Position numbers and translations under genes: made by a program. A stretch of 51,665 nucleotides of DNA from an uncultured bacterium. GTDB taxonomy: Bacteria > Bacillota_I > Bacilli_A > RF39 > UBA660. This document shows, one piece after another, positions 2,151-51,665 of the stretch (position 1 is its first letter; each line of letters opens with the position of its first letter). The stretch is from contig OMVK01000039.1 in assembly GCA_900314465.1 (NCBI GenBank), positions 1-51,665 on the forward strand, read 5' to 3'. Under the pieces are notes generated by a model. That model worked only from the letters and a program-made list of their open reading frames with translations, was not told the DNA's origin and searched no databases.

Positions 2151-4964
2151 ATGGATAAAATAATTGTAAAAGGTGCTCGTGAAAATAATTTAAAAAATAT
2201 AGATATTGAGATACCTAAAAATAAATTAGTTGTAATGACCGGTGTATCTGGTTCAGGTAAATCATCACTTGCTTTTGATACTATTTATGCTGAGGGTGAA
2301 AGAAGATATGTTGAATCACTTTCTCCATTTGCAAGACAATTCTTAGGAAATTCTACTAAACCGGATGTTGATTCAATTGAAGGATTATCACCATCTATTT
2401 CGATAGACCAAAAGACTACAAATAATAATCCACGTTCAACAGTTGGTACTGTAACAGAAATTTATGATTATTTAAGATTATTATTTGCAAGAATAGGTGT
2501 TCCATATTGTCCAAATCATCATGAACCAATAACTTCACAAAGTGTTGAAGAAATGACTAATAAAATTATGGACTATCCTGAAGGGACAAGACTTGAAGTA
2601 TTAGCACCTGTTGTACATGGGGAAAAAGGTACTCATAAAGACTTATTTGATAAACTTAGAAAAGATGGATATACAAGAGTAAGAGTTAATTCAGAAACTT
2701 ATGATTTAAGTGAAGAAATAAAATGCGAAAAAAATAAAAAAGATAATATCGATGTTGTAATAGATAGAATAGTTTTAAAAAGTGAAGCTCGAACTCGATT
2801 ATTTGAAGCGATCGAAAATGCAACTAAACTTGCTGATGGTAAAGTTGTAATAAATATATTAGGTGATAAAGAAATTGTTATGTCAGAACATTATTCTTGT
2901 CCTAAGTGTGATTTTTCACTACCAGAACTTGAACCAAGAATATTTTCTTTTAATGCTCCATATGGTGCATGTCCAGCTTGTAAAGGTTTAGGAATGACTA
3001 AACATATAGATTTAAATTTATTAATACCAGATAAAAATAAATCTATCTTAGATGGAGCAATTAAGACACTTAATATAGATAATAATCAAGATACTATTAA
3101 ATTATTAACTATTGCTAAAGAGTTAAATATTGATTTAAATGTACCAATAAAAGATATGAAAAAAGAAGACTTAGATGTTATCTTATATGGTAGTGAACAA
3201 GAATTTGAATTTAATTTTATATCGAAAAATGGTAATACTCATAAGTCTGTATCGACATATGAGGGTGTTGTCACTCAACTAGAACGCAGATATATTGAAA
3301 CTACTGCCAGTTGGATTCGTGAGTGGATTGATGGATTCATGATGGAAACTACTTGTCCAGTATGTCATGGCTCACGTTTAAAAAGTGATGTTTTAAATGT
3401 ATTAGTTGGTGGTAAATCAATTTGGGATGTAACTCAAATGAGTATAAAAGACTTAATACCATTCTTTAAAAATTTAAAATTATCTGAATCACAAAAACAA
3501 ATAAGTGATTTATTATTAAAGGAAATAGAATCTCGTTTAGAATTTCTTGATCATGTTGGCCTAAATTATTTAACACTTGCAAGAGAAGCTGGAACTTTAT
3601 CAGGCGGTGAGTCACAAAGAATAAGACTTGCAACACAGATTGGTTCAAGATTATCAGGAGTTTTATATGTACTTGATGAACCATCAATTGGCTTGCATCA
3701 AAAAGATAATGATAGACTTATCGAATCACTTAAAGCTATGCGTGATTTAGGTAATACTTTAATTGTTGTTGAACATGATGAAGATACCATGAGAGCAGCT
3801 GATTATTTAATAGACATTGGCCCTGGTGCAGGAAATGAAGGCGGAAGAGTGGTTGCAGCTGGTACTCCTGAAGAAGTTGCAAATACTGAAGGTTCAATTA
3901 CAGGAGAATATTTAAGTGGAAAAAGAAAAATTGAAGTACCTACAAAAAGAAGAAAAGGTAATGGTAAATTCTTAACTGTTAAAGGAGCTAAAGAACATAA
4001 TTTAAAAAATATTAATGTTAAATTTCCACTTGGAACATTTACTTGTGTAACTGGTGTATCAGGTTCTGGCAAATCATCATTAGTAAATGAGATATTATGT
4101 CATTCTCTTCAACAATATGTTTATAATTCAAAAGTTCATATTGGTGCCTGTAAAGAAGTTAAGGGAATGGAAAATGTAGATAAAGTAGTACAAATAACTC
4201 AAGATCCAATTGGTAGAACACCAAGATCTAATCCAGCAACATATACAGGTGTATTTGATGATATTCGTGATGTTTTTGCTCAAACTAAAGAAGCAAAGAT
4301 TCGTGGATATGATAAGAGTAGATTTTCATTCAATGTTAAAGGTGGAAGATGTGAGGCTTGTTGGGGTGATGGTGTTAAAAAAATTGAAATGCACTTTCTT
4401 CCAGATGTTTATGTACCATGTGATGTCTGTCATGGAACTCGTTTTAACTCAGAAACACTAGATATTAAATTTAAAGGAAAATCAATTGCAGATGTCTTAG
4501 ATATGAGAGTTGAAGAAGCCTATGAATTCTTTAAAAATGAACCTAAGATCAAAGCTAAATTACAAGTATTAATGGACGTAGGCCTTTCATATATTAAACT
4601 AGGAGAACCAGCTCCTGACTTATCAGGTGGTGAAGCAGGTAGAATAAAACTTGCCAAAGAACTTCAAAAGAAACCAACAGGTAAATCAGTATTTATCTTA
4701 GATGAACCAACAACTGGATTACATTCAGAAGATATTAAAAAACTCTTATCAATTTTACAAAGAATAGTTGATAATGGTGATACTGTAATCGTAATTGAAC
4801 ATAATCTTGATGTAATAAAAGTAGCAGATTATATTATTGATTTAGGACCAGATGGTGGAGATGCAGGTGGTGAAGTTGTTACTACCGGTACACCAGAAGA
4901 AGTAAGTGAGTGCAAGACTTCATATACAGGTGAATATTTAAAGAAAATATTAAATAAATATTAA
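2151..4964 (+). CDS. uvrA: Excinuclease ABC subunit A
   Basis: Two GVSGSGKS Walker A motifs, LSGGE signatures and CxxC zinc fingers. Start moved to MDKIIVKGA at 2151, after RBS AAGGTGA. Confidence 0.98.
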
Positions 4965-5040
4965 TTTACAAATAAGTTATTATTTTATTTATTCAAGTAT
5001 TAAAATAATGTTATAATTTCAGTAGGATAGAGGTGTTTTA

Positions 5041-5856
5041 ATGAATCCAATAGCTTTCTCTATATGGGGTTATGATATAAGATGGTATTCAATATTTATT
5101 TTAGCAGCTGTTATTGCATCAGCAATTGCAATTGAAAGAGAAACAGATCGATTTGGTATTAGACCTGATTTTGTATTTAATATGTTATTTTGGGCATTCA
5201 TATGTGGTGTAATTGGTGCAAGATTATATTATGTTTTATTTAATTTTCAATTATTTGCAAGTGATCCTATGACTATTTTAGAAATATGGAATGGTGGTCT
5301 TGCAATTCATGGTGGACTAATCGCTGGTTTACTTTTCATTATCGGATATACTAAAAAATATAATGTTAGAACGATACGTATATTAGATATGGTTTCTGTA
5401 CCATTATTACTTGGACAAGCAATCGGACGCTGGGGTAATTTCTTTAATCAGGAAGCTCATGGTGCTGCAACAACAGTACAAATACTTAAAAGTTTTGGCT
5501 TACCAAAGTTTATTATTGATGGAATGACTATTGATGGTGTTGTTTACACTCCAACATTCTTAATAGAATCAATTTTATGTTTAATAGCATTTATTCTAAT
5601 ATGTTTTATTAGGAGAGGAAAATATACCAAAGTAGGAGTACCATTTGCATGCTATTTAATATCATATGGTTTAATAAGATTCTTTATTGAAATATCAAGA
5701 ACTGATGCACTTATGATTGGTGGATTTAAAGTAGCTCAAATTGTATCAGTTATTATGGTTATTGTTGGTATTGGAATACTTATGTACGATAGTAGAAAAG
5801 GCAAGTTTGAAGATTTATATAACGACCGAAGTAATATAGATGAGATAAAATATTAA
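5041..5856 (+). CDS. lgt: Prolipoprotein diacylglyceryl transferase
   Basis: IRWY, GARLYYV, GGLAIHGG and GRWGNFFNQE motifs. Confidence 0.97.
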   Translation: MNPIAFSIWGYDIRWYSIFILAAVIASAIAIERETDRFGIRPDFVFNMLFWAFICGVIGARLYYVLFNFQLFASDPMTILEIWNGGLAIHGGLIAGLLFIIGYTKKYNVRTIRILDMVSVPLLLGQAIGRWGNFFNQEAHGAATTVQILKSFGLPKFIIDGMTIDGVVYTPTFLIESILCLIAFILICFIRRGKYTKVGVPFACYLISYGLIRFFIEISRTDALMIGGFKVAQIVSVIMVIVGIGILMYDSRKGKFEDLYNDRSNIDEIKY

Positions 5857-5932
5857 TATTTAAAAAGAACTAATATGTTCTTTTTTCTTTGTAATAAAAA
5901 AATTAATGTGATATGATTTTACTGGTGAGAAA

Positions 5933-6292
5933 ATGAATAATTTAGTGATGGCTTATCTAGGTGATGCTGTCTATGAATTATATATTAGAGAGTACTTAAT
6001 AAATAAAGGGATTGCTAAAGTTAAAACACTTCAAGAAGCAAGTATTAATTATGTGTCGGCAGTCAGTCAAAGAAGAATATTAGAAAAATTAATAGATAAT
6101 AATTATTTAACTGACGAAGAAATAGAAATAGTTAATCGTGGACGTAATGCATCATCACATCCAAGTAAGACTACTGATATAGTTACATATAAAAAGTCTA
6201 CTGGTTTTGAATGTTTAATTGGCAATTTATATAAAAATAATAAAGATAGATGTTATCAAATTCTAGATTATATTATAGATAATAATTTATAA
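5933..6292 (+). CDS. mrnC: Mini-ribonuclease III
   Basis: AYLGDAVYELYIR, RGRNA and STGFECLIG motifs. Confidence 0.93.
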   Translation: MNNLVMAYLGDAVYELYIREYLINKGIAKVKTLQEASINYVSAVSQRRILEKLIDNNYLTDEEIEIVNRGRNASSHPSKTTDIVTYKKSTGFECLIGNLYKNNKDRCYQILDYIIDNNL

Positions 6293-6308
6293 AAGAAAGA
6301 AGATTTAT

Positions 6309-6908
6309 ATGGATTATCAAAACGATAACGAACTAATTGAAATGGTATCTGATAATTCTGAAGAAGCAAGAGATTATTTATATAATAAATATTCGTATAT
6401 CGTAGATATTATTATTAATAAATATCGTACTAGTGCTAGTTATTTAAATGTCGATATGAATGATTTAAGACAAGAAGCTTTATTAGGTTTTTCAGATGCT
6501 TTAGTAAATTATAATCAAGATAAAGATACTAGTCTTTCAACTTTTATTAGTTTATGTGTTGAAAGAAGAGTTGGTAATTATATAAGAAAATATAGTACAA
6601 ACAAAATGAAACAAGAAGGCAATGCTCTTTCTTTAGATATGAATGTAGGAAAAGATGAAGATTTACCTATTCAAGATGTAATTGGTATGCCAAACTCAAA
6701 TCCTGAAACCAAGATGGTTGATAAAGAAGAAACAGAAAGATTAAATAGAGAGATTAAAGAAGCATTAAGTCCTTCGGAATATGAGATATATGAATTATTA
6801 ATAAATGATTTTAGCTATGAAGATATTGCTAAAATAACTAATAAACAACCAAAGCAAGTTTATAATATGATATATCGTATTCGTAGCAAAGTTAAAGATT
6901 TATTATAA
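6309..6908 (+). CDS. sigH: Sigma-70 family sigma factor, SigH-like
   Basis: DLRQEALLG, FISLCVER and YEDIA..KQVYN..YRIR motifs; sits at the conserved position between mrnC and secE. Confidence 0.8.
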   Translation: MDYQNDNELIEMVSDNSEEARDYLYNKYSYIVDIIINKYRTSASYLNVDMNDLRQEALLGFSDALVNYNQDKDTSLSTFISLCVERRVGNYIRKYSTNKMKQEGNALSLDMNVGKDEDLPIQDVIGMPNSNPETKMVDKEETERLNREIKEALSPSEYEIYELLINDFSYEDIAKITNKQPKQVYNMIYRIRSKVKDLL

Positions 6909-6998
6909 AATTATTGCATTAAATACTTCCATATGCTATATTATTGGTGTACACGGAAGTGTTTTTTTTATACATGAATTTTAAGAGGAGTTTTAAAC

Positions 6999-7499
6999 AT
7001 GAAAAAGAAAAGCAATGAAAAAAATGAAAAAAAAGAAACTATCGAAGAAAAAGATAATTCTGATGTAAAAACTAAAAAAGCAGCAAAAGAATTAAAAGAA
7101 CAAGAAAAGAAACAAGAAAAAGAAGAGAGAAAAAAGTTTGAAAAAGAAGAGAAAGCTAAAAAAGAAGCTGAAGAAGAAAAATATGAAGAAGAACGTGAAA
7201 AAGTAGAACAACAAATTGATGATTTACTAGTCAAACGTGATGATGCAAAAGATAATAAAGATAAAGAACAAGTAAAAGAATTAAATAAAGAAATCAAAGA
7301 ACTTAAGAAAAAAAGATCTGATATTGGCAAAGAAGATTCTTATTTACACCAAGTAAAAGAAGAAATGAAACTTGTTCGTTTTCCAAGCAAACAAGAAGTA
7401 ATTAAATATTCGATTGCAACACTTGTATTTATTGTGTTCTTTGGTTTATTCTTTTCGCTTATTAATGCAATATTTGCATTTATCAAAACATTATTTTAA
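6999..7499 (+). CDS. secE: Preprotein translocase SecE with a long K/E-rich N-terminal extension
   Basis: C-terminal VKEEMKLVRFPSKQE plus a single TM helix; immediately upstream of nusG. Confidence 0.88.
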   Translation: MKKKSNEKNEKKETIEEKDNSDVKTKKAAKELKEQEKKQEKEERKKFEKEEKAKKEAEEEKYEEEREKVEQQIDDLLVKRDDAKDNKDKEQVKELNKEIKELKKKRSDIGKEDSYLHQVKEEMKLVRFPSKQEVIKYSIATLVFIVFFGLFFSLINAIFAFIKTLF

Positions 7500-7513
7500 A
7501 AGGGGAACATTGT

Positions 7514-8053
7514 ATGGAAAAGTTATGGTATGTTGTTAATACTTATTCAGGTCATGAAGATTCAGTAAAAGAAAAGCTTATGCAAAGAGCATCATCAATG
7601 GGATTTGATGATTATATATTTAGAGTTATTGTTCCAACAGAAACTGTAGTTGAAACTACTAAAGATGGAAAGAAAAAAGAAGTTCAAAAGAAGTTATTTC
7701 CTGGTTATGTTTTAGTAGAAATGATTATGACTGATGAAGCTTGGTATGTTGTAAGAAATACTCCAGGTGTAACAGGTTTACTTGGTTCATCTGGTAAAGG
7801 TGCAAAACCAACTCCAATTCCACCACAAGAAATTGAAAAAATATTAGTAAATATGGGTATGTCAAGAGTTGATGCTGATACTGAACTTAAAAAAGGTACT
7901 AAGGTTGATATTGTTGATGGTCCATTTAAGGGTATGAGTGGTGTTGTTGATACAGTTGATAATGATAATAATAGATTAACAGTAATTATTGATTTATTTG
8001 GTCAAGAAACTCCTGTCGAACTAGAAACATTCCAAATAAATATTGCAAGATAA
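7514..8053 (+). CDS. nusG: Transcription termination/antitermination factor NusG
   Basis: WYVVNTYSGHE, FPGYVLVEM, VRNTPGVTG and KOW motif DGPF. Confidence 0.98.
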   Translation: MEKLWYVVNTYSGHEDSVKEKLMQRASSMGFDDYIFRVIVPTETVVETTKDGKKKEVQKKLFPGYVLVEMIMTDEAWYVVRNTPGVTGLLGSSGKGAKPTPIPPQEIEKILVNMGMSRVDADTELKKGTKVDIVDGPFKGMSGVVDTVDNDNNRLTVIIDLFGQETPVELETFQINIAR

Positions 8054-8151
8054 AGATTTCTCTTTATCTTTTTTGTTGATATTAATAATTACTTGCTATT
8101 TATTAGTACTTGTGTTAATATCTAAATTGCTAAATTATTTTTAGCATGAAT

Positions 8152-8186
8152 GTGGGAGGGAAACGCGGATTTGCCCATTACCACAT
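8152..8186 (+). promoter_or_regulatory. Conserved rplK leader (GTGGGAG...ACCAC, L1-binding-site-like structure)
   Basis: GTGGGAGGG..CCCATTACCACAT resembles the structured leaders in Firmicute rplK/rplA regions. Confidence 0.6.
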
Positions 8187-8215
8187 AGCGAAAATACAGA
8201 AAGGATGTGTTTTAC

Positions 8216-8803
8216 GTGGCAAAAGAAGTCTTTAGAAAAGTTAAATTACAAATCGAAGCAGGAAAAGCAACTCCAGCTCCACCAGTTGGTACTGCAGTTG
8301 GTCCATTAGGAATCAATATTCAAGATTTCTGTCAAAAGTATAATGCTGCTACTCAAGATAAACTTGGTAATGTAATACCAGTTGAATTAACAGTTTATGC
8401 TGATAAGTCATTCGATTTCGTTTTAAAAACACCACCTACTGCTGAATTACTTAAGAAAGCTGCAAAGATTGAAAAAGCTAGTAGTAAAGGTGCTAATGAA
8501 GTAGTTGCAACTTTAACTCAAGATGATATTAAGAAGATTGCTGAAACTAAAATGCCTGATTTAAATGCTTATTCAATCGAAGAAGCTATGAAACAAGTTG
8601 AAGGTACAGCACGTAATATGGGAATTGCAGTTAAGGGTGTAAACGATCAAGAACTTGCTGAACAAGAAAAAGAGGCTGAAGAAGAAGAGGCTAAAGAAGC
8701 TGAAAGAGAAGCCGAACTTCAAGCTATGCAAGAATCTTCTCAAGATACTAATGTAGAAACTGAAGTTATCACTGAGAAGAAAGATGAAGAAGAACAACAA
8801 TAA
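8216..8803 (+). CDS. rplK: 50S ribosomal protein L11 with an acidic C-terminal extension
   Basis: AGKATPAPPVG, KTPP, KMPDLNA and GTARNMG motifs; likely GTG start at 8216. Confidence 0.97.
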   Translation: MAKEVFRKVKLQIEAGKATPAPPVGTAVGPLGINIQDFCQKYNAATQDKLGNVIPVELTVYADKSFDFVLKTPPTAELLKKAAKIEKASSKGANEVVATLTQDDIKKIAETKMPDLNAYSIEEAMKQVEGTARNMGIAVKGVNDQELAEQEKEAEEEEAKEAEREAELQAMQESSQDTNVETEVITEKKDEEEQQ

Positions 8804-8862
8804 TTTAAATTAATTTAATATAAATAAAAATCCGCTAATAAACCACGATTGGAGGTAAAAAG

Positions 8863-9561
8863 ATGAAAAAGTTTGGAAAGAAATATGTGGAAGCTTCAAA
8901 ATTAGTTGAAGCAAATAAGCAATATACTTTATCTGAAGCTGTTGATTTAGTTAAGAAAACTTCTGTAACTAAGTTTGATAGTTCAGTAGAAATTGCTGTT
9001 AAACTTAACATCGATACCAAGAAAGCTGATCAACAAATGAGAGGTTCTATTGTTTTACCAAATGGAAATGGTAAGACTAAGAAAGTATTAGTACTTGCAA
9101 AAGGTGCTGCTGCTGAAGCTGCAAAAGCTGCCGGTGCTGATTATGTTGGAGAACAAGATATGATCGATAAGATAGCTAAGGAAAACTGGTTTGATTATGA
9201 TGTAATCGTTGCAACTCCTGAAATGATGCCTGCACTTGGTAAAATTGGTCGTGTTTTAGGGCCAAGAGGTTTAATGCCTAACCCTAAAACTGGAACTGTT
9301 ACAACAACACCTGATAAGGCTGTTTTAGATGTTAAGAAAGGTATGGTTGAATATCGTGCTGATCAATATGGTAATGTTAATTTATCAGTTGGTAAAGTTT
9401 CATTTACTGAAGATAAATTAATTGAAAATATCAAGTTTGTTATTAACACACTTGTGAAAGCAAAACCTGCATCAGTAAAAGGTAAATATATTAAAAACAT
9501 ATCTTTATCTACTACTATGGGTCCTGGTATCCATGTAGACCAAAATTCTATTGACATGTAA
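8863..9561 (+). CDS. rplA: 50S ribosomal protein L1
   Basis: GRVLGPRGLMPNPKTGT and STTMGPG motifs. Confidence 0.98.
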   Translation: MKKFGKKYVEASKLVEANKQYTLSEAVDLVKKTSVTKFDSSVEIAVKLNIDTKKADQQMRGSIVLPNGNGKTKKVLVLAKGAAAEAAKAAGADYVGEQDMIDKIAKENWFDYDVIVATPEMMPALGKIGRVLGPRGLMPNPKTGTVTTTPDKAVLDVKKGMVEYRADQYGNVNLSVGKVSFTEDKLIENIKFVINTLVKAKPASVKGKYIKNISLSTTMGPGIHVDQNSIDM

Positions 9562-9597
9562 TTTATTATAGTGTTAATATAATGATGTTAAAAAAAC

Positions 9598-9702
9598 GAG
9601 TACCGAAGACAGTAGGGAATACTTATGTATTTTAATTATCCTACCGAGGGAAGGTTTATTCTTTTAAAAGATATAGACTTTCCTTAACGGAAAGTTTTTT
9701 TA
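9598..9702 (+). promoter_or_regulatory. L10 leader (rplJL autoregulatory RNA) with attenuator-like hairpin
   Basis: CCGAAGACAGTAGG...TTAA...CCTACCGAGG, then an ACTTTCC-ttaac-GGAAAGT stem plus T tract upstream of rplJ. Confidence 0.8.
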
Positions 9703-9724
9703 TAAATAATAAAGGAGGACATGT

Positions 9725-10228
9725 ATGGCAAGTTCAAAAATACTTGAATCTAAACAAGCAACAGTAGATGAAATTACTGATAAAATAAAAAATTCTGAAT
9801 CAGTTGTTGTATTTAAATATGCAAAAAGTACTGTTAGCGATTTACAGGGTTTAAGAAGAGAATTGAAAAAGTCTGATAGTGAAGTTAAAGTTTACAAGAA
9901 TACCCTTGTTAAACGTGCACTAGATGGTTTAAATATTGACCTTGATGAGTATCTTGAAGGACCTAATGCTATCGTTTTTGGTAAAGATTTACTAGAGCCA
10001 ATTAAGGCTGTATCTAAATTTGCTAAAGATCATGATAATATTGAAATTACAACTGGTATTATTGATGGCAAAGCAGTTTCACTTGATACTATTAAAGATT
10101 ATGCATCTATCCCATCAAGAGAAGGACTTATCACTATGATTGCTGGTGGCTTAATGGAACATGTTAAGAAAGTAGCCATCGAACTTAATTTATATGCCGA
10201 TAAATTAGGCGGAGAAAATAATAATTAA
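9725..10228 (+). CDS. rplJ: 50S ribosomal protein L10
   Basis: LRRELK, VYKNTLVKRA and ASIPSREGL motifs. Confidence 0.96.
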   Translation: MASSKILESKQATVDEITDKIKNSESVVVFKYAKSTVSDLQGLRRELKKSDSEVKVYKNTLVKRALDGLNIDLDEYLEGPNAIVFGKDLLEPIKAVSKFAKDHDNIEITTGIIDGKAVSLDTIKDYASIPSREGLITMIAGGLMEHVKKVAIELNLYADKLGGENNN

Positions 10229-10246
10229 AAGAAAGGAATGATTTAA

Positions 10247-10612
10247 ATGGCAAAATTATCTACACAAGAAATAGTTGACGCTATAAAAGAAATGACTATT
10301 CTAGAAGTTAAAGATTTAGAAGAAGCAATTGAGAAGGAATTTGGAGTTAATCCAAATGCAGTAGCTGTTGCTGCACCTGCTGAAGCTCAAAAGGATGACG
10401 GTCCTTCTACTAAGACTGTTGTATTAAAGAGTTGCGGAGATAAGAAGATTGCAGTTATTAAAGTTATACGTGAAGCTACTGGCTTAGGTTTAGTTGAAGC
10501 TAAGGGTCTTGCTGATAAAGGTGGAAATATTAAGGAAAATATTCCTGCTGCTGAAGCTGATGAACTTAAGGCTAAACTTGAAGAAGCTGGAGCTACTGTT
10601 GAACTTCAATAA
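10247..10612 (+). CDS. rplL: 50S ribosomal protein L7/L12
   Basis: KIAVIKVIREATGLGLVEAK and LEEAGATVEL motifs. Confidence 0.98.
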   Translation: MAKLSTQEIVDAIKEMTILEVKDLEEAIEKEFGVNPNAVAVAAPAEAQKDDGPSTKTVVLKSCGDKKIAVIKVIREATGLGLVEAKGLADKGGNIKENIPAAEADELKAKLEEAGATVELQ

Positions 10613-44133: not shown

Positions 44134-44640
44134 AATTAATATAAGAAATGAGTGATTTCTATGAATTTCGACTTTAAAAATTCACTTGTAGGTTATGATG
44201 AATCAAATACAAAAGATTTATTAACTAAGATAAAGCAAGTAGTAGATGATACTAATACAAATATAAGTGCATCTATGAATGAAGTAATAGATGGAATAGA
44301 TTATTACTGAGTAGGAATGGGTGCAGAAGCATTCAAAGAAGTCCAAAGAGAAGATATAAAAGAACTATCAAATGCCTTTTCTGAAATATCACAAGGAATA
44401 CAAAATAACATATTAATTATGGGACAGGATGTAGTAAACAGTGATAACGTAATAGCAGCAAGTATAAATGGATTAATTGACACAAATACATCTGGTTATA
44501 CAGGAAATAATTCAGTTAATCAAAGTATTAGTGCTAGTGTAAATGGCGGTATTCCATCAAATATTTTAGATAGCATTGTTAATGCTTTGGAAAGAACTGG
44601 AGCAACACTTGCAACAGCAGGAACATATGCTGGTAAGGGT
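44134..44640 (+). repeat. Direct repeat copy A (pairs with 46352-46858, offset 2218)
   Basis: Nearly identical for ~440 bp (I see one synonymous TTC/TTT difference), then progressively diverging. Confidence 0.92.
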
Positions 44641-45616
44641 GTTATGTCTTTTACAGAGAATATTGGAGATGCAGGTGTAATAGCATGTACAACAATGCTT
44701 ACACCGGTAACAGCTCTTTTTGATGGAGTTGGCTATTTAACATCAAACTTAACAGGTTCAAGTTATGAACCAATAACTGATGATGTTTGGAATGCAACAA
44801 AAGAACTAACATCTCAAAATTTAACAATGATGTATTTGATGATATTGAAAATTCGCCATATGGGAAATGGCTTCAAGATAATGCATATGGCTATGATACA
44901 GTCAAGGATGTTCCTACACTTGTTGGATATATAGGTGCGGCAGTTGGTACAACAGTTTTAACTGGTGAATTAGGAAGTGCAGCTAGCTTGTCATCAGCTT
45001 CAACAGGTGCGGCCTTAGGATACAATCGTTACCAACAATTAGTACAGGAGTAGGAGCTACAAATGCAGTAATAAACGCAGTAGCAAGAACTGGAGTCAGT
45101 GCGGTTAAAGGAGCATCAAATGTTCCACTTGGATCTGTAGCTCATTTGTTATATGATCCATCTACAGAAAAGCAACAAGAGTTACTAAACACAATAAATT
45201 ATGATGACAATGGTAATCAAATAAACAACAAGGCATGGGATGATTTAACATTAGGGGAAAAAACTAGTTTATATTATGAAGATGCTGGTGGAACAAAACA
45301 AATAATTTCATCAGGTGAATATTCTGCATTAGCAAATGGTACAATCGAGGCAGTAAATCTTGGAATCGATTTAAAAAATAACATTAAAGATAATATAACT
45401 AATCGTGAACAGCCAAGTAACACATCTGGTATCAGAGCACCAATTCTAAAGCCAGCACGTAAATTAAAAGATACAAGAGTAGTATCGAAAATACTAAATA
45501 TATTAGATAAAGCAACATCTAATAGTTCAAAAAATATGATAGATTTAACTATCAACTCTGCTTATGATGCGGAAAAAACAAAAATATCAGATGAATTTGA
45601 TACAATAGATTCATAA
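44161..45616 (+). pseudogene. Degenerate WXG100-led toxin paralogue (in-frame TGA 44308-44310; frameshifts near 44826 and 45027)
   Basis: The three track ORFs (44317, 44787, 45146) align collinearly with the 46379-48796 protein. The C-terminus differs and has no ART motifs. Confidence 0.85.
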
Positions 45617-45669
45617 TTATATAAATAAGCAAAAAAAATATATAGTAAAATTAATATGGAGGTTAGAAT

Positions 45670-45984
45670 ATGAATAATGTGAAGTATTTACCAATAGGTA
45701 CAGTAGTAATGCTAAAAGGTGGTAAAAGAAAAATAATGATAATTGGATTTGAAATGAGTTCAAATAAAGATGGAGTAAATAAACATTATGATTATGCTGG
45801 ATGTATATATCCAGAAGGAATGCTTGATTATAATACTGGGTTATTTTTTAATCATGATCAAATAGAAAAAATATATTATATGGGTTACAAAAGTGATGAA
45901 CACATACTATTTGATAAAGCATTAAAAGATTATATTAAAAAAGAAAATGATAACATAAATCAGGAGAGTAACAATGAACAATAA
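45670..45984 (+). CDS. DUF4176 domain protein (T7SS-associated)
   Basis: YLPIGTVVML, IMIIG, YDYAGCIYPEG and FFNHDQIEKIYYMGY motifs. Confidence 0.9.
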   Translation: MNNVKYLPIGTVVMLKGGKRKIMIIGFEMSSNKDGVNKHYDYAGCIYPEGMLDYNTGLFFNHDQIEKIYYMGYKSDEHILFDKALKDYIKKENDNINQESNNEQ

Positions 45985-46357
45985 AACATATTTACCAATA
46001 GGCACAGTAGTAATGCTAAAAGGTGGTAAAAAGAGAATAATGGTTATAGGTTATGAAATGCAATATGTAGATGACAAAGGTGTTAAACAACGTTTTAACT
46101 ATGCAGGATGTTTATTCCCAGAAGGATTAATAAACACCAACGAAGTGTTATTATTTAATAATAATCAAATAGAAAAAATATATTTTACAGGTTACTCTGA
46201 TGAAGAACAAAAACAATTTAATACTAAATTACTAGAGTTGATTAATAAACAACTAGTACCTAATGTTAATAATCAAAATAGTACAACATTAGGAGAACCA
46301 AATTTGTATTCAAATGATAGACCACAAATAACACAAGTTAACAGTACAAATAATTAA
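45974..46357 (+). CDS. DUF4176 domain protein, second paralogue with an N/Q-rich tail
   Basis: YLPIGTVVML, YAGCLFPEG and LFNNNQIEKIYFTGYSDEE motifs. Confidence 0.9.
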   Translation: MNNKTYLPIGTVVMLKGGKKRIMVIGYEMQYVDDKGVKQRFNYAGCLFPEGLINTNEVLLFNNNQIEKIYFTGYSDEEQKQFNTKLLELINKQLVPNVNNQNSTTLGEPNLYSNDRPQITQVNSTNN

Positions 46358-46858
46358 TATAAGAAATGAGTGATTTCTATGAATTTTGACTTTAAAAATT
46401 CACTTGTAGGTTATGATGAATCAAATACAAAAGATTTATTAACTAAGATAAAGCAAGTAGTAGATGATACTAATACAAATATAAGTGCATCTATGAATGA
46501 AGTAATAGATGGAATAGATTATTACTGAGTAGGAATGGGTGCAGAAGCATTCAAAGAAGTCCAAAGAGAAGATATAAAAGAACTATCAAATGCCTTTTCT
46601 GAAATATCACAAGGAATACAAAATAACATATTAATTATGGGACAGGATGTAGTAAACAGTGATAACGTAATAGCAGCAAGTATAAATGGATTAATTGACA
46701 CAAATACATCTGGTTATACAGGAAATAATTCAGTTAATCAAAGTATTAGTGCTAGTGTAAATGGCGGTATTCCATCAAATATTTTAGATAGCATTGATAA
46801 TGTTTTGGAAAGAACTGGAGCAACAATTGCAACAGCAGGAACATATGCTGGCAAAGGT
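46352..46858 (+). repeat. Direct repeat copy B
   Basis: Matches 44134-44640. Confidence 0.92.
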
Positions 46859-48796
46859 TTAATGTCTTTTGGTGAGGATGTTATGGATGCTGGTGTAATA
46901 ATAGGTGCAGCTGCACTTACACCAACAGCATTACTTACTGATGGAGCTGGTTATATAGCATCAAAATTAACAGGTGCAGATTATGAACCAGCAACAAAGG
47001 CAATGTGGAGTGCAGCAAAGGGTTTTACTTCAAAAACACTGACAGAAGATTTGTTTAATTCAATGGAAGATACATCTTATGGAAAATGGCTTCAGAATAA
47101 TGCATATGGATATGATACAGTAAAAAATGTTTCAACATCAGCTGGTTATATGGCTGGAACAGTTGGAGCAACAATTTTAACAGGTGGATTAGCAGGAGGT
47201 ATATTAGGACTAACTCCAGCAGCAACAGGTGCATTACTTACTGGTGCAACATCACTTGGAAGAAATACTACTGCAGCTTGGAGAGATGGTGCATCAACAA
47301 CAGGAGGACTTGCCTATGGTAGTGTAATGGGTGCAAAAGATGCCGCAATGGGATATGTAGCATTACCAACAATTGGTACAGGTGTGAGTGTTGCAAATTC
47401 AGCATTAAATGCGGTAGCAAGAACAGGTCTTAATGCAGCACAAAGTGCACTTGATGTTCCACTTGAATCAGCAGCACATTTGTTATATGATCCATCAAAA
47501 GAAAAACAAAATGAATTATTAAATTTAACAAATTTTGATGAAGATGGTAATCAAATAAATAATAAGACATGGGAAGATTTAACTATATCAGATAAAGCTA
47601 AATTATATTTTGATGAAGCTGGTGGAACAAAGCAAATGATTACATCAGTAGCAACATCTGCATTAGTAAGTGGAGGGATGGAAGCTGCTAATTCATTGGT
47701 TAGTGCAAAACAAAATTTAGATTCTGATAATATTAGTACAAAAGAATCAACTGTAGACTTAGAAGATACTCTAGAGATGGAACCTGTAAAAGAATCAACT
47801 GTAGACTTAGAAGATACTCTAGAGATGGAACCTGTAAAAGAATCAACTGTAGACTTAGAAGATACTCTAGAAATGAACCCTGTAAAAGAATCAACTGTAG
47901 ATTTAGATGATACTCTTGAGATGGAGCCTATAGATTTAAATAAAAACGATTCAAACTCAACTTTAAATAATAAAAACAATAATGAAAATATAGTAACAAT
48001 AAAAGAAACAAAAGATACAACATTTGACGGAAATGCAAAGTCATTTAAAGATGTACAAAGATTCCTTCAACCACGATCAGAAGCAATTACAGCAATGTCT
48101 AAACATTTTGGTGATGCCGGTGAAAAGGTAAATGATCTCTTTAGAAAGGGTATGACTGCAGAAGAAATAATGAATGTTTTGCCAGATAACGAAAAGGGAC
48201 AATTTAAAGAATATTTAACCAACACTCATGCTGGACAATGGCTTTCAGGTCTATCTAAAGATCAAATTAAGTCAATCAATTATTATTCATCTATAAGTTG
48301 CGATGGAATACAAAATGAGCTTAGAGCTGCAACGACTGATGCAGATATAATTATTAATAGGGACAAAGTTAAAAATATAGATTCTGCCCTTGAACAGTTT
48401 GGTGGAACAAGAGAAGATGCTGTTTTATATAGAGGAGTTAACCTTAATTCATTTGCAGCTCAAGAAGGTTATGGCGAACTATTTAATGGAGTAAATGCAA
48501 ATGATCCTGTAGAAATATATGCGACACTTTCAACATTAACCGGAAAAACTTTTCATGATAAAGCATATATGAGTGCCTCACCTGGCCTAAATACATGTTT
48601 TAAAAATAGAAAAATAATACTAGAAATTGATACACCAAAAGGAAGTAAAGGAGCATATATTAATCAAATATCTGATTTTTACAACTCCGAAAATGAGTTT
48701 CTTTTACCACGTGATACATCATTAAAAATGGCAGGTGTAGCACTAAAAAAGATTGGTAATGATGAAAAAGTTGTTGTTCATTGTAAATATGAATAA
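46379..48796 (+). CDS. WXG100/LXG-like polymorphic toxin with a C-terminal VIP2-like ADP-ribosyltransferase; in-frame TGA at 46526-46528
   Basis: ATG 46379 follows RBS GAGTGA and is in frame with the track ORF 46535. Features: YY*VG..AEAF, a G/A-rich hydrophobic middle, and LYRG, YMSAS, ENEFLLPR. Confidence 0.85.
47741..47932 (+). repeat. Four tandem 48-bp coding repeats (KESTVDLEDTLEMEPV)
   Basis: Units start at 47741, 47789, 47837 and 47885; the first two are identical. Confidence 0.95.
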
Positions 48797-48802
48797 ATAG
48801 TA

Positions 48803-48811
48803 TGATATAAT
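48803..48811 (+). promoter_or_regulatory. Extended -10 promoter for the putative immunity genes
   Basis: TGATATAAT just after the toxin stop, followed by RBS GGAGG. Confidence 0.6.
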
Positions 48812-48838
48812 ACAAAATAATAATAATGGAGGGATAAT

Positions 48839-49039
48839 ATGAATAATGATAATAAAAGGAAAAGTTTTCCAGATGCAAAATTTACATTTAAAGATGATGA
48901 AGGTAAAACTAAAGAACAAATAGAAGAAGAAGTAAAAAAAATGATTGCTGAAAGAGATAGAACACTTGCGGAATTAAGAAAACAAAGAGAACAAGAAAAT
49001 ACACAAACTGAAGAAGAGAATTCTTCCAGGCACAGATAA
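48839..49039 (+). CDS. 66-aa charged protein, candidate toxin-binding immunity factor
   Basis: Strong RBS GGAGG; located between the ART toxin and the ARH gene. Confidence 0.7.
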   Translation: MNNDNKRKSFPDAKFTFKDDEGKTKEQIEEEVKKMIAERDRTLAELRKQREQENTQTEEENSSRHR

Positions 49040-49057
49040 TAAAGAAAGTGAATAATT

Positions 49058-50059
49058 ATGGTTAATAAAGAACAAATACAGTCTGGAATTTTTGGCTTTG
49101 TTGTAGGTGATGCTTATGGTGTTCCATATGAATTTTTAAAAAGAAATGATGAAAGATTAAAAAAAATCGAAGACATGAAGGCATATGGGACACACAATCA
49201 ACCATCTGGAACATGGAGTGATGATTCATCAATGACTTTATCAACAATGCAATCAATTGTTGATAATGATGGAAAGATTAATTATGATGATATAATGAAC
49301 AAATATGTTGATTGGGCAGTTAAAGCTAAATATACTGCAACCGATACTTTATTTGATATTGGAAATAGTACATATAAAGCAATAAATAAATATTTATCTC
49401 ATAGATATAGCCCGACTGAATGTGGTGGTAAATCAGTATATGAAAATGGTAATGGATCTCTAATGAGAATGTTACCTGTAATATTTGATTTGTATGATAG
49501 TGATTTAACAGACACACAAAAAAATAATATAATTAACGAATATTCATCATTAACTCATGCCAATGAGATAAGTCAAATGGGTTGTCACATCTACTATGAT
49601 TTTGTTAGTAATATAATGGATGGTCTTTCCAAAAATGAAGCATACGAAAAAGTTAAGCAAATAAACTATAAACAATACTATAATGATAGTTCCATAGAAA
49701 AGTATAAAAGAATACTAAATGGTTCATTAGATACTTTATCACAAGCAGAAATTTCATCGTCAGGATATGTAGTAGACACACTAGAAGCATCTATTTGGTT
49801 AATTTTACATACAAATAGTTATGAAGAATTAGTTAAAAAAGCTGTATCTTTAGGAGATGACACAGATACTGTTTCAGCAATTTCCGGAAGTATAGGTGGA
49901 CTAATTTATGGATACAACAATATTCCTAAAGAATGGTTGGATAAGATAAAGAAAAAAGATCAAATCAATCAATTATGTTTAAATTTTACTGAATGTCTAA
50001 ATAAAAAAAACATAAACAAAGAAGATAATTATAATGAATCATCTTGCACAAGAAGATAA
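49058..50059 (+). CDS. ADP-ribosylglycohydrolase (DraG/ARH family), predicted immunity
   Basis: GDAYGVPYEF, WSDDSSMT, GNGSLMR, THA and GDDTDT metal-binding motifs. Confidence 0.93.
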   Translation: MVNKEQIQSGIFGFVVGDAYGVPYEFLKRNDERLKKIEDMKAYGTHNQPSGTWSDDSSMTLSTMQSIVDNDGKINYDDIMNKYVDWAVKAKYTATDTLFDIGNSTYKAINKYLSHRYSPTECGGKSVYENGNGSLMRMLPVIFDLYDSDLTDTQKNNIINEYSSLTHANEISQMGCHIYYDFVSNIMDGLSKNEAYEKVKQINYKQYYNDSSIEKYKRILNGSLDTLSQAEISSSGYVVDTLEASIWLILHTNSYEELVKKAVSLGDDTDTVSAISGSIGGLIYGYNNIPKEWLDKIKKKDQINQLCLNFTECLNKKNINKEDNYNESSCTRR

Positions 50060-50114
50060 AACTTTAATTTACTTAGTTTAAGTAGTATTATATTATTATA
50101 ATAGGTGATATATA

Positions 50115-50483
50115 ATGAAGTATTATTATGGTGGAGATAGACACTATTCAATTGATTCAATAGAAGAAGTGTATTTAAATCTAAATAAAGAGATAGATAG
50201 AATAGATGCTATCATGAAAGATATTGAAAATCACATAAATGACTTAAAACCTAATTTTACTGGTGATGTAGCAAATGCATTTTATGAAAAGTTTAATAAC
50301 ATTGATTCTGAATATAAAACAATTAAAGATAATTTTAATAAATATGCAGATAGTTTATTAAAGATAAAAGATGCATATCATTATATAGATGAACAAGAAG
50401 TCAAGAAAATGGAAAAAATGACTGATGAACTTGTATCTAATCAAAAAGCTAGTATGGAAGCAAATTTAAATCAAAACAGATAA
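50115..50483 (+). CDS. WXG100-like protein (F-x-G variant)
   Basis: 122 aa helix-turn-helix pattern, central FTG..ANAF and a C-terminal YxxxD (YHYID). Confidence 0.75.
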   Translation: MKYYYGGDRHYSIDSIEEVYLNLNKEIDRIDAIMKDIENHINDLKPNFTGDVANAFYEKFNNIDSEYKTIKDNFNKYADSLLKIKDAYHYIDEQEVKKMEKMTDELVSNQKASMEANLNQNR

Positions 50484-50508
50484 TTTATAACAACAAAAAA
50501 CCATTAAC

Positions 50509-51665
50509 CGATATGAGCCCCGTTTCTTGGACAAAATAGAAACGAGGTTTTGTATGAGTAAATTAACATATGAAGATAAAATAAATTTGTATAATGATAG
50601 AAAAAAGGAATTAGTGTTGCATCGTTATCATTAAAGTATAAAGTTGCTGAGTCAGTAATCAAATATTTGATATGCTTAATTGATAAACATGGGTATGGTA
50701 TCTTAAAAAGAGATAAAAATAAATATTATTCTTCCCACGAAAAAGAAAGAATAATTTATAGAGTATTATTAAATAATGAATCCACAAATTCAGTAGCAAT
50801 AGATGAAGGACTTGCAAGCAGAGGTATGTTATGTAATTGGATTAAAAAATATAAAGAAAACGGGTATAATGTAGTTGAACGAAAGCGATGACGTCCAACT
50901 ATAAAAACAAAGACTAAAGTTAAGAAAAGCGAAATAGACAAAGAAAAAATTAAGAGACTTGAAGAAGAAAATTTATATTTGAAGGCAGAACTTGAATACA
51001 CAAAAAATTGAGAGCCTTAGTTCAAGCAAGGAAGAATCGACAACAGAAGAAAAAACAACTATTGTTACTGAACTAAGGCCTAAATATGGTTTAAAGATTC
51101 TTCTTAAAGTGTCAGGTCTTGCAAGATCAGTATATTATTACACTTTATCAAAGATTGATAAAGATAATAAAAATAAAGAAGTTATTAAGAAGATAAAAGA
51201 AATATTCATTAAAAATAAAGAGAGATATGGATATCGTAGAATAACACTTGAACTTAAGAATCAAGGTTATAATGTTAATCATAAGAAAGTTTATAGGTTA
51301 ATGCATAAACTTAATCTAAAACCACTTAAACTAAATAAAAGAAGATATTCTTCTTATAAAGGAATAATTGTAAAAATAGCCAATAATATTATTAAAAAAG
51401 ATTTCTTTGCAAACAAGCCAAATAGAAAGTGGTATACAGATGTTACTGAATTTAATCTAAGGGGAGAAAAAGTCTATCTTTCACCAATTCTAGATGGCTA
51501 TAATGGTGAAATTGTTTCTCATGACACATCAAGATGTGCTGATTTGAATCAGATAAGAAGAATGCTGGATAAAGTTTTTAATGGTAAAAAGTTAGATGGA
51601 TTAATACTTCATTCAGATCAAGGATGGCAATATCAACATAATTATTATCAGCAAAGGCTTAAAAA
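50509..51665 (+). mobile_element. IS3 family (IS150-group-like) element, orfA disrupted, truncated by the window end
   Basis: IR-like end GATATGAGCCCCGTTTCTTGGACA. HTH orfA starts at 50554. The orfB frame is open from ~51001 to the end, with YGYRR, WYTDVTEF and HSDQGWQY. Confidence 0.9.
50554..51011 (+). pseudogene. IS3 orfA pseudogene
   Basis: Frameshift in the A-run near 50601-50607 and TGA at 50889-50891 where RGRP is expected. Confidence 0.75.

Follow-up and report, generated by a model that had tools for sequence, protein, structure and literature searches.

Does the toxin/immunity island at the end of a 51,665-nt contig from an uncultured gut bacterium still encode a usable weapon, and what protects the cell that carries it? 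The stretch of DNA analyzed here (the window: positions 1 to 51,665 of contig OMVK01000039.1, assembly GCA_900314465.1, hereafter contig C79) comes from a member of the gut Bacilli with a genome of ~1.15 Mb, recovered at a completeness of 94.5%. A first-pass annotation, made from the letters alone, had described the plus strand from 44.1 to 51.7 kb as an interbacterial warfare module with export by a type VII secretion system (T7SS). Every gene that it named is indeed present on this one strand in the standard-code list of open reading frames (ORFs) and Pfam matches, and the set is bounded by an insertion sequence (IS) of the IS3 family. The proposal stands insofar as the genes form a T7SS-type polymorphic toxin/immunity module in a genome that encodes EssC; however, the toxin frame is not intact here. 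We consider it probable that the island is T7SS-associated and that its toxin allele has been disarmed while two protection genes have been kept.

The C-terminal tip of the toxin (amino acids (aa) 620–804) matches ADPrib_exo_Tox (PF03496) with 99.7 bits against a cut-off of 23.4, covering positions 8–190 of the 196 in the profile. The R-S-ExE motifs of this ADP-ribosyltransferase (ART) domain lie exactly where the first reading had placed them: LYRG at 48425–48436 (R688), YMSAS at 48566–48580 (S735 and S737) and ENE at 48689–48697 (E774 and E776). The closest relatives in the PDB are Plx2A (5URP, E 1.8e-10) and Lmo0066 (8ZA7_B, E 1.5e-9), followed by C3-type toxins, Certhrax, Vip2 and iota. 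The motifs align with those of 5URP, which has QLE in place of ENE. An ExE motif, as opposed to the C3-like QLE, suggests that arginine is the acceptor. This is consistent with a mono-ADP-ribosyltransferase of the R-S-ExE type that would modify arginine. The Tre1/Tri1-like chemistry attributed to the island holds for the pairing of an ExE ART with an ADP-ribosyl(arginine) hydrolase (ARH) of the DraG/Tri1 type, but the ART itself is of the C3/Vip2/Lmo0066 class, and Tre1 (6DRH) is not among the 38 PDB sequences that it matches (phmmer, E ≤ 0.01).

The assignment of the ARH is equally clear. The protein matches PF03747 (ADP_ribosyl_GH) with 207.7 bits (cut-off 26.2) over the full length of the profile (2–287 of 287) and contains the motifs GDAYG, WSDDS and GDDTDT, which we take to contain conserved metal-site residues. 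It aligns over its full length with Lmo0067 (8ZA7_A, E 1.2e-73) and also with Tri1 (6DRE, E 1.1e-38). The Tri1 model NF041672 is its best NCBIfam match (170.7 bits, below the equivalog cut-off of 490). Because this alignment begins at profile position 69 (69–353 of 361, from residue 6 of a protein whose ARH domain starts at residue ~10), the ARH lacks the occluding N-terminal extension of Tri1. Relatives of the ARH occur in 33 of 301 genomes of the order (E ≤ 1e-30), and in only one of the genomes with such matches (G017) is an ART directly followed by an ARH; in the named genomes, 238 pattern matches to ARH were found and none was confirmed. The G017 locus (L048; G017:C32, 1–11672) has a giant ORF (6816-aa open frame) with an ART near its end, followed by a 406-aa ARH with an 88-aa N-terminal extension. 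This ARH could represent a fused immunity protein resembling Tri1, used with another delivery scaffold. The source genome also has a second ARH paralogue of 43% identity (L049; G000:C68, 5046–5981, minus strand), located among small genes without a detectable ART toxin.

Between the toxin and the ARH lies the 66-aa ORF that had been annotated there. Its ATG is preceded at 8 nt by GGAGGG, and Pfam recognizes no known immunity family in it. When the 66-aa protein was modeled with the ART (aa 590–808) by ESMFold2 complex prediction, the pair reached an ipSAE of 0.84 (best control, 0.00), with at least 94% contact agreement between runs and a partner pLDDT of at least 79. For calibration, the ipSAE mark applied is reached by 51 of 78 solved complexes and by 2 of 108 mismatched pairs. 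The confident predicted interface takes in R688, S735, E774 and E776. The prediction is not expected to recall a solved complex, because the 66-aa protein has no sequence relative in the PDB (best E 0.22). The model suggests that the protein is a candidate plug of the ART active site, predicted to bind over the catalytic cleft. BLASTP gave no alignment between it and the 88-aa extension of the G017 ARH.

The predicted plug invites a simpler alternative, which we regard as rather unlikely, that immunity comes from the ARH alone, which would bind directly to the ART in the manner of Lmo0067 and Lmo0066, the 66-aa ORF being unrelated or non-functional. The closest solved relative of the ARH is indeed held in an ART-ARH complex (8ZA7), ARH proteins are the immunity partners listed for ART-RSE toxins (Zhang et al., 2012; PMC3482391), and the 66-aa ORF has neither homologues nor counterparts in the other loci examined. 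Against this stand the strong ribosome-binding site of the ORF, the wide margin by which the complex prediction passes with an interface over all four catalytic residues, and the finding that none of the single-nucleotide polymorphisms (SNPs) listed across strains falls inside the ORF. We retain the reading in which two putative protection genes, the 66-aa gene and the ARH gene, are intact beside a toxin that is most likely disarmed.

The damage to the toxin is a stop codon. In both toxin copies, TGA replaces the Trp codon of the WXG motif ('YY-W-VG'), at positions 44308–44310 and 46526–46528, and two paralogues on contig C66 of the same genome read TGG there. The stop is codon 53 of the toxin and falls at the hairpin turn between two helices in the AlphaFold2 (AF2) model; the likely true start of the gene is ATG 46379. 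The 808-aa 'WXG-led' protein of the first-pass annotation is obtained only if TGA is read as Trp; the leader with its W-V-G hairpin is encoded as described, but under the standard code neither the toxin nor its paralogue is one open frame. The upstream 'WXG-led paralogue' fares worse, being split over three frames that match toxin aa 1–225, 227–272 and 331–459, without any ART (tblastn) and with a C-terminal piece that belongs to no Pfam family. The two copies are identical except for one base from 44134 to ~44580, and the presence of the same TGA in both is explained by one recent duplication or conversion of these ~445 bp.

Genetic code 4 (TGA = Trp) was considered since it joins the toxin ORF, and was ruled out by genome-wide TGA use, tRNA content and release factor 2 (RF2). 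In the 488 long ORFs bounded by TAA or TAG, TGG occurs 1238 times versus 260 for TGA; of the 260 TGAs, the first and last tenths of the ORF account for 128 and 63, respectively. The number of long ORFs is 471 with code 11, 488 with code 4 and 480 in a control with TAG readthrough. TGA terminates 62 of the 559 ORFs of at least 250 codons; read through, these would run on by a median of 3 codons before another stop, and just 2 of them by 100 codons or more. Aragorn found 22 tRNAs, among which the sole tRNA-Trp has the CCA anticodon, weak evidence by itself as the tRNA set is incomplete. Both RF1 (PVT motif) and RF2 (SPF motif) are encoded. The PGK gene has a single TGA, at its natural end, two codons before a TAA; a 538-aa ORF tried before it in the code test had no PDB relative. 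The in-frame TGAs of the other protein-coding ORFs in the window are confined to positions ahead of the real start or at the natural C-terminus (two spurious ORFs in a likely rRNA stretch were set aside). Among the ORFs of the window, a mid-gene TGA with homology continuing beyond it is limited to the two toxin copies and orfA of the IS3 element. The genome thus uses the standard code, with TGA as a stop. Because the TGA stands at the WXG Trp codon in a standard-code genome, the toxin of the source strain is most likely disarmed and would be neither made at full length nor exported. The case is also a caution, as reading TGA as Trp in a low-GC bacterium with a small genome had concealed a real nonsense allele.

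Other gut metagenomes show both alleles of this codon. Near-identical versions of the island stretch are found in runs labelled as bovine and sheep gut metagenomes, 16 of which contain at least half of the sampled words, and we read the alleles from metagenome contigs aligned to window positions 46000–50600. Position 46528 is G (TGG) in a sheep gut dataset (X12), at a depth of 38.4/38.4 on a 305-nt contig whose depth is ~2x that of its flanks, which fits both toxin copies collapsed together. It is also G in X17 (depth 2.3/2.3), a weak call only 13 nt from the contig end. The position is A (TGA) in X2 and X3, which have identical statistics and were treated as one dataset. These two carry nearby SNPs relative to the window, so the TGA allele is not limited to one clone. 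The stop is therefore a real, polymorphic allele, and the intact TGG form exists in other strains. X17 is an RNA-library run with contigs over 46000–46150, 46312–46540, 46804–46870 and 48910–49103; such libraries may contain DNA, and expression cannot be inferred from this coverage.

Could the toxin still work despite the stop? Near-cognate decoding of UGA by tRNA-Trp occurs in Bacillus, and low-level readthrough of codon 53 by tRNA-Trp(CCA) would yield the wild-type protein because the stop replaces a Trp codon; the TGA would then be an expression throttle rather than a knockout. Its position exactly at an invariant Trp codon (TGG in the paralogues and in other strains), its presence in both copies and its occurrence in the window and in X2/X3 despite their SNP differences are all in keeping with this idea, as is the fact that four of the six downstream SNPs listed are synonymous, including one in the catalytic Arg codon. 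We nevertheless find it improbable: RF2 is present and TGA is an efficient stop genome-wide, the identity of the two copies is accounted for by the recent duplication or conversion, and the adjoining paralogue and IS3 orfA are broken too, which fits a general decay of the island. Very improbable in our judgment is a split expression, in which translation stops at the TGA and restarts at ATG 46535 so that a ~50-aa helix-1 peptide and a 753-aa protein reassemble non-covalently and are still exported: the ATG does lie 6 nt (two codons) past the TGA and the cut falls exactly at the turn between the hairpin helices, but no good Shine-Dalgarno spacing precedes 46535, we know of no precedent for a split-expressed hairpin toxin, and the intact TGG allele elsewhere marks the split form as derived, not designed.

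The toxin is connected to type VII secretion, in the first place, by its leader. AF2 models the N-terminal domain as a helix (17–52), a turn formed by W53-V54-G55 and a second helix (56–112), with a mean pLDDT of 76 and ~90 in the core. In a full HMMER scan of 1.84 billion representatives, no more than 27 relatives reached E ≤ 0.001; some are standalone proteins of ~105 aa, others are proteins of 336–1022 aa with the domain at their N-terminus. We aligned 27 sequences: the domain of the window, a single paralogue from C66, and the 25 hits that remained once P0001 (a fragment of the window itself) and P0015 (matched in five stretches) had been set aside. Of these sequences, 17 match Pfam WXG100 (PF06013) and 2 match LXG at E ≤ 0.01. 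The WXG100 hairpin fold anticipated for this N-terminus is borne out by the AF2 model and by these family matches, and so is its description as not a canonical LXG. The domain is 45–47% identical to the two C66 paralogues, and by this measure is a paralogue of the standalone 111-aa WXG protein encoded beside essC.

The leader is followed by a middle domain (residues ~126–345) rich in Ala (16%), Gly (15%) and Thr (13%), with two hydrophobic peaks. Both DUF4176 genes claimed upstream of the toxin are confirmed by PF13780 matches above the cut-off and adjoin a toxin with a hydrophobic middle domain. Proteins of this family are toxin-specific chaperones that bind the disordered hydrophobic middle domain of T7SSb toxins, and those of 70–130 aa form its 'small' size class (Gkragkopoulou et al., 2025; PMC12478183). 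By analogy, the two island proteins are probably Ltc-type toxin chaperones. The arrangement recurs in related genomes. For example, G057, of the same genus, encodes an intact 813-aa toxin with the same N-domain and middle region and a different tip, directly downstream of two DUF4176 genes. Similarly, G009 has one DUF4176 gene before a 1011-aa toxin that shares the common middle region and adjoins essC, downstream of several WXG100 genes. The toxin is matched in 4 of 101 sampled genomes of its GTDB family, the source genome (G000) included; a word-based homologue search with toxin aa 1–460 passed nothing among 8000 candidates scored, probably owing to the low-complexity middle domain.

The first-pass annotation had noted that the window lacks an EssC and had proposed to look for one in the rest of the genome. 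PF01580 retrieved a 1532-aa ORF on contig C66 that passes the EssC equivalog model (TIGR03928, 880.2 bits; cut-off, 778.4) and matches FtsK_SpoIIIE in two stretches. The last 55 bp of the window are identical to the first 55 bp of C66, with the OrfB frame of the IS3 element running on across the join, and the element matches no other contig of the assembly. By this overlap, essC most likely lies ~3.3 kb beyond the IS3 element that ends the window. It is followed on C66 by an 84-aa gene, the 111-aa standalone copy of the N-domain, small helical or WXG100-like proteins, and a 547-aa protein joining the N-domain to a CHAP domain. The 84-aa protein is modeled as a ubiquitin-like beta-grasp (pLDDT 96), with best query-normalized TM-scores (0.80–0.81) to the ubiquitin-like domain of ESX-5 EccD; no protein of the source genome, this one included, matches the hidden Markov model (HMM) of YukD. 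Of 23 related loci, 19 have the 84-aa gene next to essC, as does G057, where the whole arrangement is kept. The T7SS locus of G057 has no fhs or island counterpart alongside, and no kinase, phosphatase or FHA partner was seen beside essC on C66.

EssC scores above the cut-off in 37 of 101 sampled genomes of the GTDB family and YukC in none, and the nearest EssC relatives belong to metagenome-assembled genomes labelled 'uncultured Bacilli bacterium'. Clusters T7SSc-j combine an EssC-type ATPase, WXG100 proteins and ubiquitin-like proteins without EssA, EssB or EsaA (Garrett, Higginson & Palmer, 2024; PMC11217815). As far as this source describes them, the C66 locus resembles these subtypes in its EssC, WXG100 and ubiquitin-like set without an EssB or EsaA match (EssA was not searched for), but could not be assigned to any one of them. 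The accessible text of the same paper makes no mention of Erysipelotrich*, Mollicutes or Tenericutes, and a literature search for RF39 and type VII secretion returned nothing relevant. The C66 locus may represent a T7SS subtype, as yet undescribed or unassigned, of gut Bacilli with reduced genomes.

Another reading is that the ART is no export cargo at all, and belongs instead to an intracellular pair (toxin-antitoxin or regulatory) like DraT/DraG or DarT/DarG, or acts as a host-directed toxin. It draws on the mostly non-toxin contexts of ARH homologues in the order and on C3-like and binary host-directed toxins among the closest solved ART relatives, but has a very small probability: the ART is the tip of a protein that begins with a hairpin of the WXG100 type and continues with a middle domain linked to chaperones, DUF4176 genes and, most likely, essC adjoin it, and an ExE toxin in one operon with an Arg-type ARH fits self-protection against an antibacterial toxin (Zhang et al., 2012; PMC3482391).

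Several observations weigh against the view that the island is a T7SS toxin/immunity system with a disarmed toxin and two shields. Most ARH homologues of the order lie away from any detectable toxin, so an ARH alone is no proof of immunity. The 66-aa gene is absent from the other ARH loci examined, and searches for homologues of its product returned only the protein itself at near lengths, none among longer proteins (weak evidence) and no usable atlas hit; the role proposed for it comes from one in silico prediction. The toxin's own Pfam WXG100 score (14.6–18.2 bits) is below the cut-off, Pfam LXG (PF04740) has no match in the toxin, and Foldseek found no significant match for the hairpin (none at E ≤ 0.001; best E 0.16), with EsxA, EsxB, ESAT-6 and CFP-10 in its non-significant top ranks. 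The search for essB and esaA that had been proposed along with that for essC came up empty: the HMMs of EssB/YukC, YukD and EsaA (TIGR03929) have no match in this 94.5% complete genome, so that the apparatus does not qualify as a canonical T7SSb. The join between C79 and C66 depends on a 55-bp assembly overlap within an IS element. Finally, at least two datasets with differences at nearby SNPs share the TGA allele, which allows for some residual toxin function, and of the SNPs listed, six lie in the toxin downstream of the stop, four synonymous (including one in the catalytic Arg codon) and two nonsynonymous, too few for a test of selection.

The pairing of a T7SS ART with an ARH is not new, and its novelty had been overstated in the first reading: a 2012 catalogue and the Listeria complex 8ZA7 precede it. 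The catalogue lists Tox-ART-RSE toxins with T7SS leaders (WXG, LXG and LDXD) and ADP-ribosyl glycohydrolase immunity, and states that no enzymatic immunity protein other than Imm-ARG was known at the time (Zhang et al., 2012; PMC3482391). Its domain logic is exactly that of the island, firmicutes and tenericutes are among the groups covered, and the immunity protein is Imm-ADP-RGHD. The class is bioinformatic only and, unlike the island with its 66-aa gene, is given no small occluding partner with the ARH in the accessible part of that work. An LXG-ART has also been reported as abundant in human gut metagenomes (Whitney et al., 2017; PMC5555719).

The Lmo0066 (ART) and Lmo0067 (ARH) proteins of Listeria monocytogenes (8ZA7) likewise place a DraG-type ARH directly downstream of the ART, and lmo0066 is within the T7SS hypervariable region lmo0061–lmo0075 (PMC5417603). 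In the island, by contrast, an extra gene of 66 aa separates toxin and ARH, the leader is of the WXG100 type, two small DUF4176 genes are present, and neither EssB nor EsaA is detectable for the T7SS. Our literature search turned up no paper describing 8ZA7 or Lmo0067. In the Tre1-Tri1 pair of Serratia proteamaculans (6DRE/6DRH), an R-S-E ART is also countered by a DraG-like ARH, and Tri1 both occludes the active site and strips Arg-ADP-ribose (PMC8120803). Delivery there is by a type VI secretion system, whereas the island's would be by a T7SS, and the island ARH is without the occluding extension, occlusion being predicted from the separate 66-aa protein. The T7SSb toxins TelA and TelB of Streptococcus intermedius have a WXG-superfamily leader and a disordered hydrophobic middle bound by DUF4176 (Ltc) chaperones, and are exported via EssC (PMC12478183). 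The Ltc proteins characterized there are of the 'large' class (200–250 aa), encoded between the Lap genes and the toxin, whereas the island has two 'small' ones (104 and 127 aa), no upstream Lap pair, and as leader a ~110-aa WXG100-like hairpin rather than a Pfam LXG. Closest in gene order is YwqJ-YwqK-EndoV of Bacillus subtilis, in which toxin, binding immunity protein and a separate damage-reversing enzyme follow each other in one T7SS operon (PMC13648612, preprint). That system involves DNA deamination and endonuclease V, in contrast to protein ADP-ribosylation and ARH in the island, where the role of the binder is predicted only. By these comparisons, the locus is a real and complete-looking T7SS ART toxin/ARH immunity island of a known kind, and the possibly new part is a separate orphan occluder beside a stand-alone eraser.

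In strains with the intact toxin, the WXG100-type hairpin would be recognized by the EssC-type T7SS, and the middle domain would be kept soluble by the two upstream Ltc-type DUF4176 chaperones. An acidic repeat linker would join the middle region to the ART tip, which may modify arginine on a target in a neighboring bacterium. Self-protection would come in two layers, the 66-aa protein plugging the catalytic cleft of the ART and the ARH stripping ADP-ribose from arginine like Tri1 and DraG. In the source strain, the TGA in both copies would prevent full-length toxin and export, and both shields would stay. A broader proposal, which we offer tentatively as possible rather than probable, is that the two functions of Tri1 are here split over two genes, a specific 66-aa plug and a generic ARH eraser, giving the logic of YwqJ/YwqK/EndoV a second chemistry in an EssB-less T7SS variant common in a ~1-Mb gut Bacilli family, with TGA as a circulating 'disarmed but immune' allele. 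A 66-aa protein that truly plugs the active site would be a new minimal inhibitor of C3/Vip2-class ARTs, and the locus would then offer a clean natural case in which blocking the toxin and reversing its damage, both of them tasks of Tri1, are kept apart. The island may have been caught in a 'cheater' state, its weapon broken and its shields intact while the armed allele circulates in the guts of other animals. The EssC counts in the family also suggest that a type VII secretion arsenal is maintained by uncultured gut Bacilli whose genomes have been reduced to ~1 Mb.

Table 1. Features of the toxin/immunity island and of the linked EssC locus (window positions unless a locus is named).
Coordinates	Strand	Feature	Evidence
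44152–45616	+	Decayed upstream toxin paralogue: TGA at WXG Trp codon, two frame changes, internal gap, no ART domain	
44152–44310	+	Upstream paralogue, piece 1; ORF of 52 aa	Code 11
44317–44934, 44787–45053, 45146–45616	+	Upstream paralogue, further pieces; ORFs in changing frames	
45670–45984	+	DUF4176 protein 1, 104 aa, 'small' class	PF13780 87.9 bits, E 4.6e-25, cut-off 25
45974–46357	+	DUF4176 protein 2, 127 aa, 'small' class	PF13780 92.1 bits, E 2.3e-26, cut-off 25
46370–48796	+	Toxin gene, cut by in-frame TGA 46526–46528 into ORFs of 52 aa (46370–46528) and 753 aa (46535–48796)	
46379–46744	+	Toxin N-terminal WXG100-type helical hairpin; putative T7SS recognition domain	AF2, family HMM matches
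46745–47739	+	Toxin middle domain, Gly/Ala/Thr-rich, hydrophobic; putative DUF4176 chaperone-binding and possible translocation region	
47740–47929	+	Four tandem 48-nt repeats; acidic 16-aa linker unit KESTVDLEDTLEMEPV	TRF: period 48, 4.0 copies, 93% matches
48227–48781	+	C-terminal ART domain; R688, S735, E774-x-E776	PF03496 E 1.7e-28
48839–49039	+	Orphan 66-aa protein; candidate occluding immunity protein	Strong Shine-Dalgarno, complex prediction
49058–50059	+	ARH, 333 aa, DraG/Tri1/Lmo0067 type; candidate 'eraser' immunity enzyme	PF03747
50115–50483	+	122-aa WXG100-like protein, FTG replacing WXG; possible hairpin partner or targeting factor	
50667–51663	+	IS3-family element, truncated by contig end	HTH_21, rve
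L009 (= G000:C66) 3329–10249		EssC locus: EssC, 84-aa ubiquitin-like, 111-aa WXG and further small helical proteins	

The gene that follows the ARH is present as an ORF, but its annotation as WXG100-like is borderline: PF06013 scores 26.8 bits, just below the cut-off of 27.3, and TIGR03930 scores 39.5 against 44.85. The orfB of the adjoining insertion sequence matches HTH_21 (70.4 bits) and rve (56.3 bits) at 50959–51663, which places it in the IS3 family. Its orfA (50667–51020) has an in-frame TGA at codon 75 ('VERKR[TGA]RPTIK') beyond which a leucine-zipper-like part continues, and only with this TGA read through does it approach HTH_Tnp_1 (23.2 bits; cut-off, 24.1). Thus, under the standard code the element looks broken, like the toxin. 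Contigs of several other metagenomes have loose ends at window positions 50510–50551, which suggests that in other strains the insertion of IS3 is either polymorphic or present in several copies; this may account for the assembly break inside the element. A scan of the island for promoters and terminators gave counts no better than those of shuffled sequence.

Contig C66 carries further candidates around essC. A second T7SS-type toxin of 547 aa (L009, 10262–11905) has a WXG-type N-domain with the TGG intact, a long acidic linker rich in Ser, Thr, Glu and Gln, and a C-terminal CHAP domain (Pfam E 5.7e-10). Two genes on the minus strand (L009, 331–3175) diverge from essC. One encodes a 575-aa protein that contains HELIH (HExxH) and a single hydrophobic segment; the product of the other is a DUF5684 membrane protein of 353 aa that carries a zinc ribbon. 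The two are kept beside essC in G057 and could be parts of the apparatus. Elsewhere in the window, the GC content rises to 45–47% at 28000–32000 over a background of 23–32%, which fits an rRNA operon, and the spurious ORFs there are rich in TGA.

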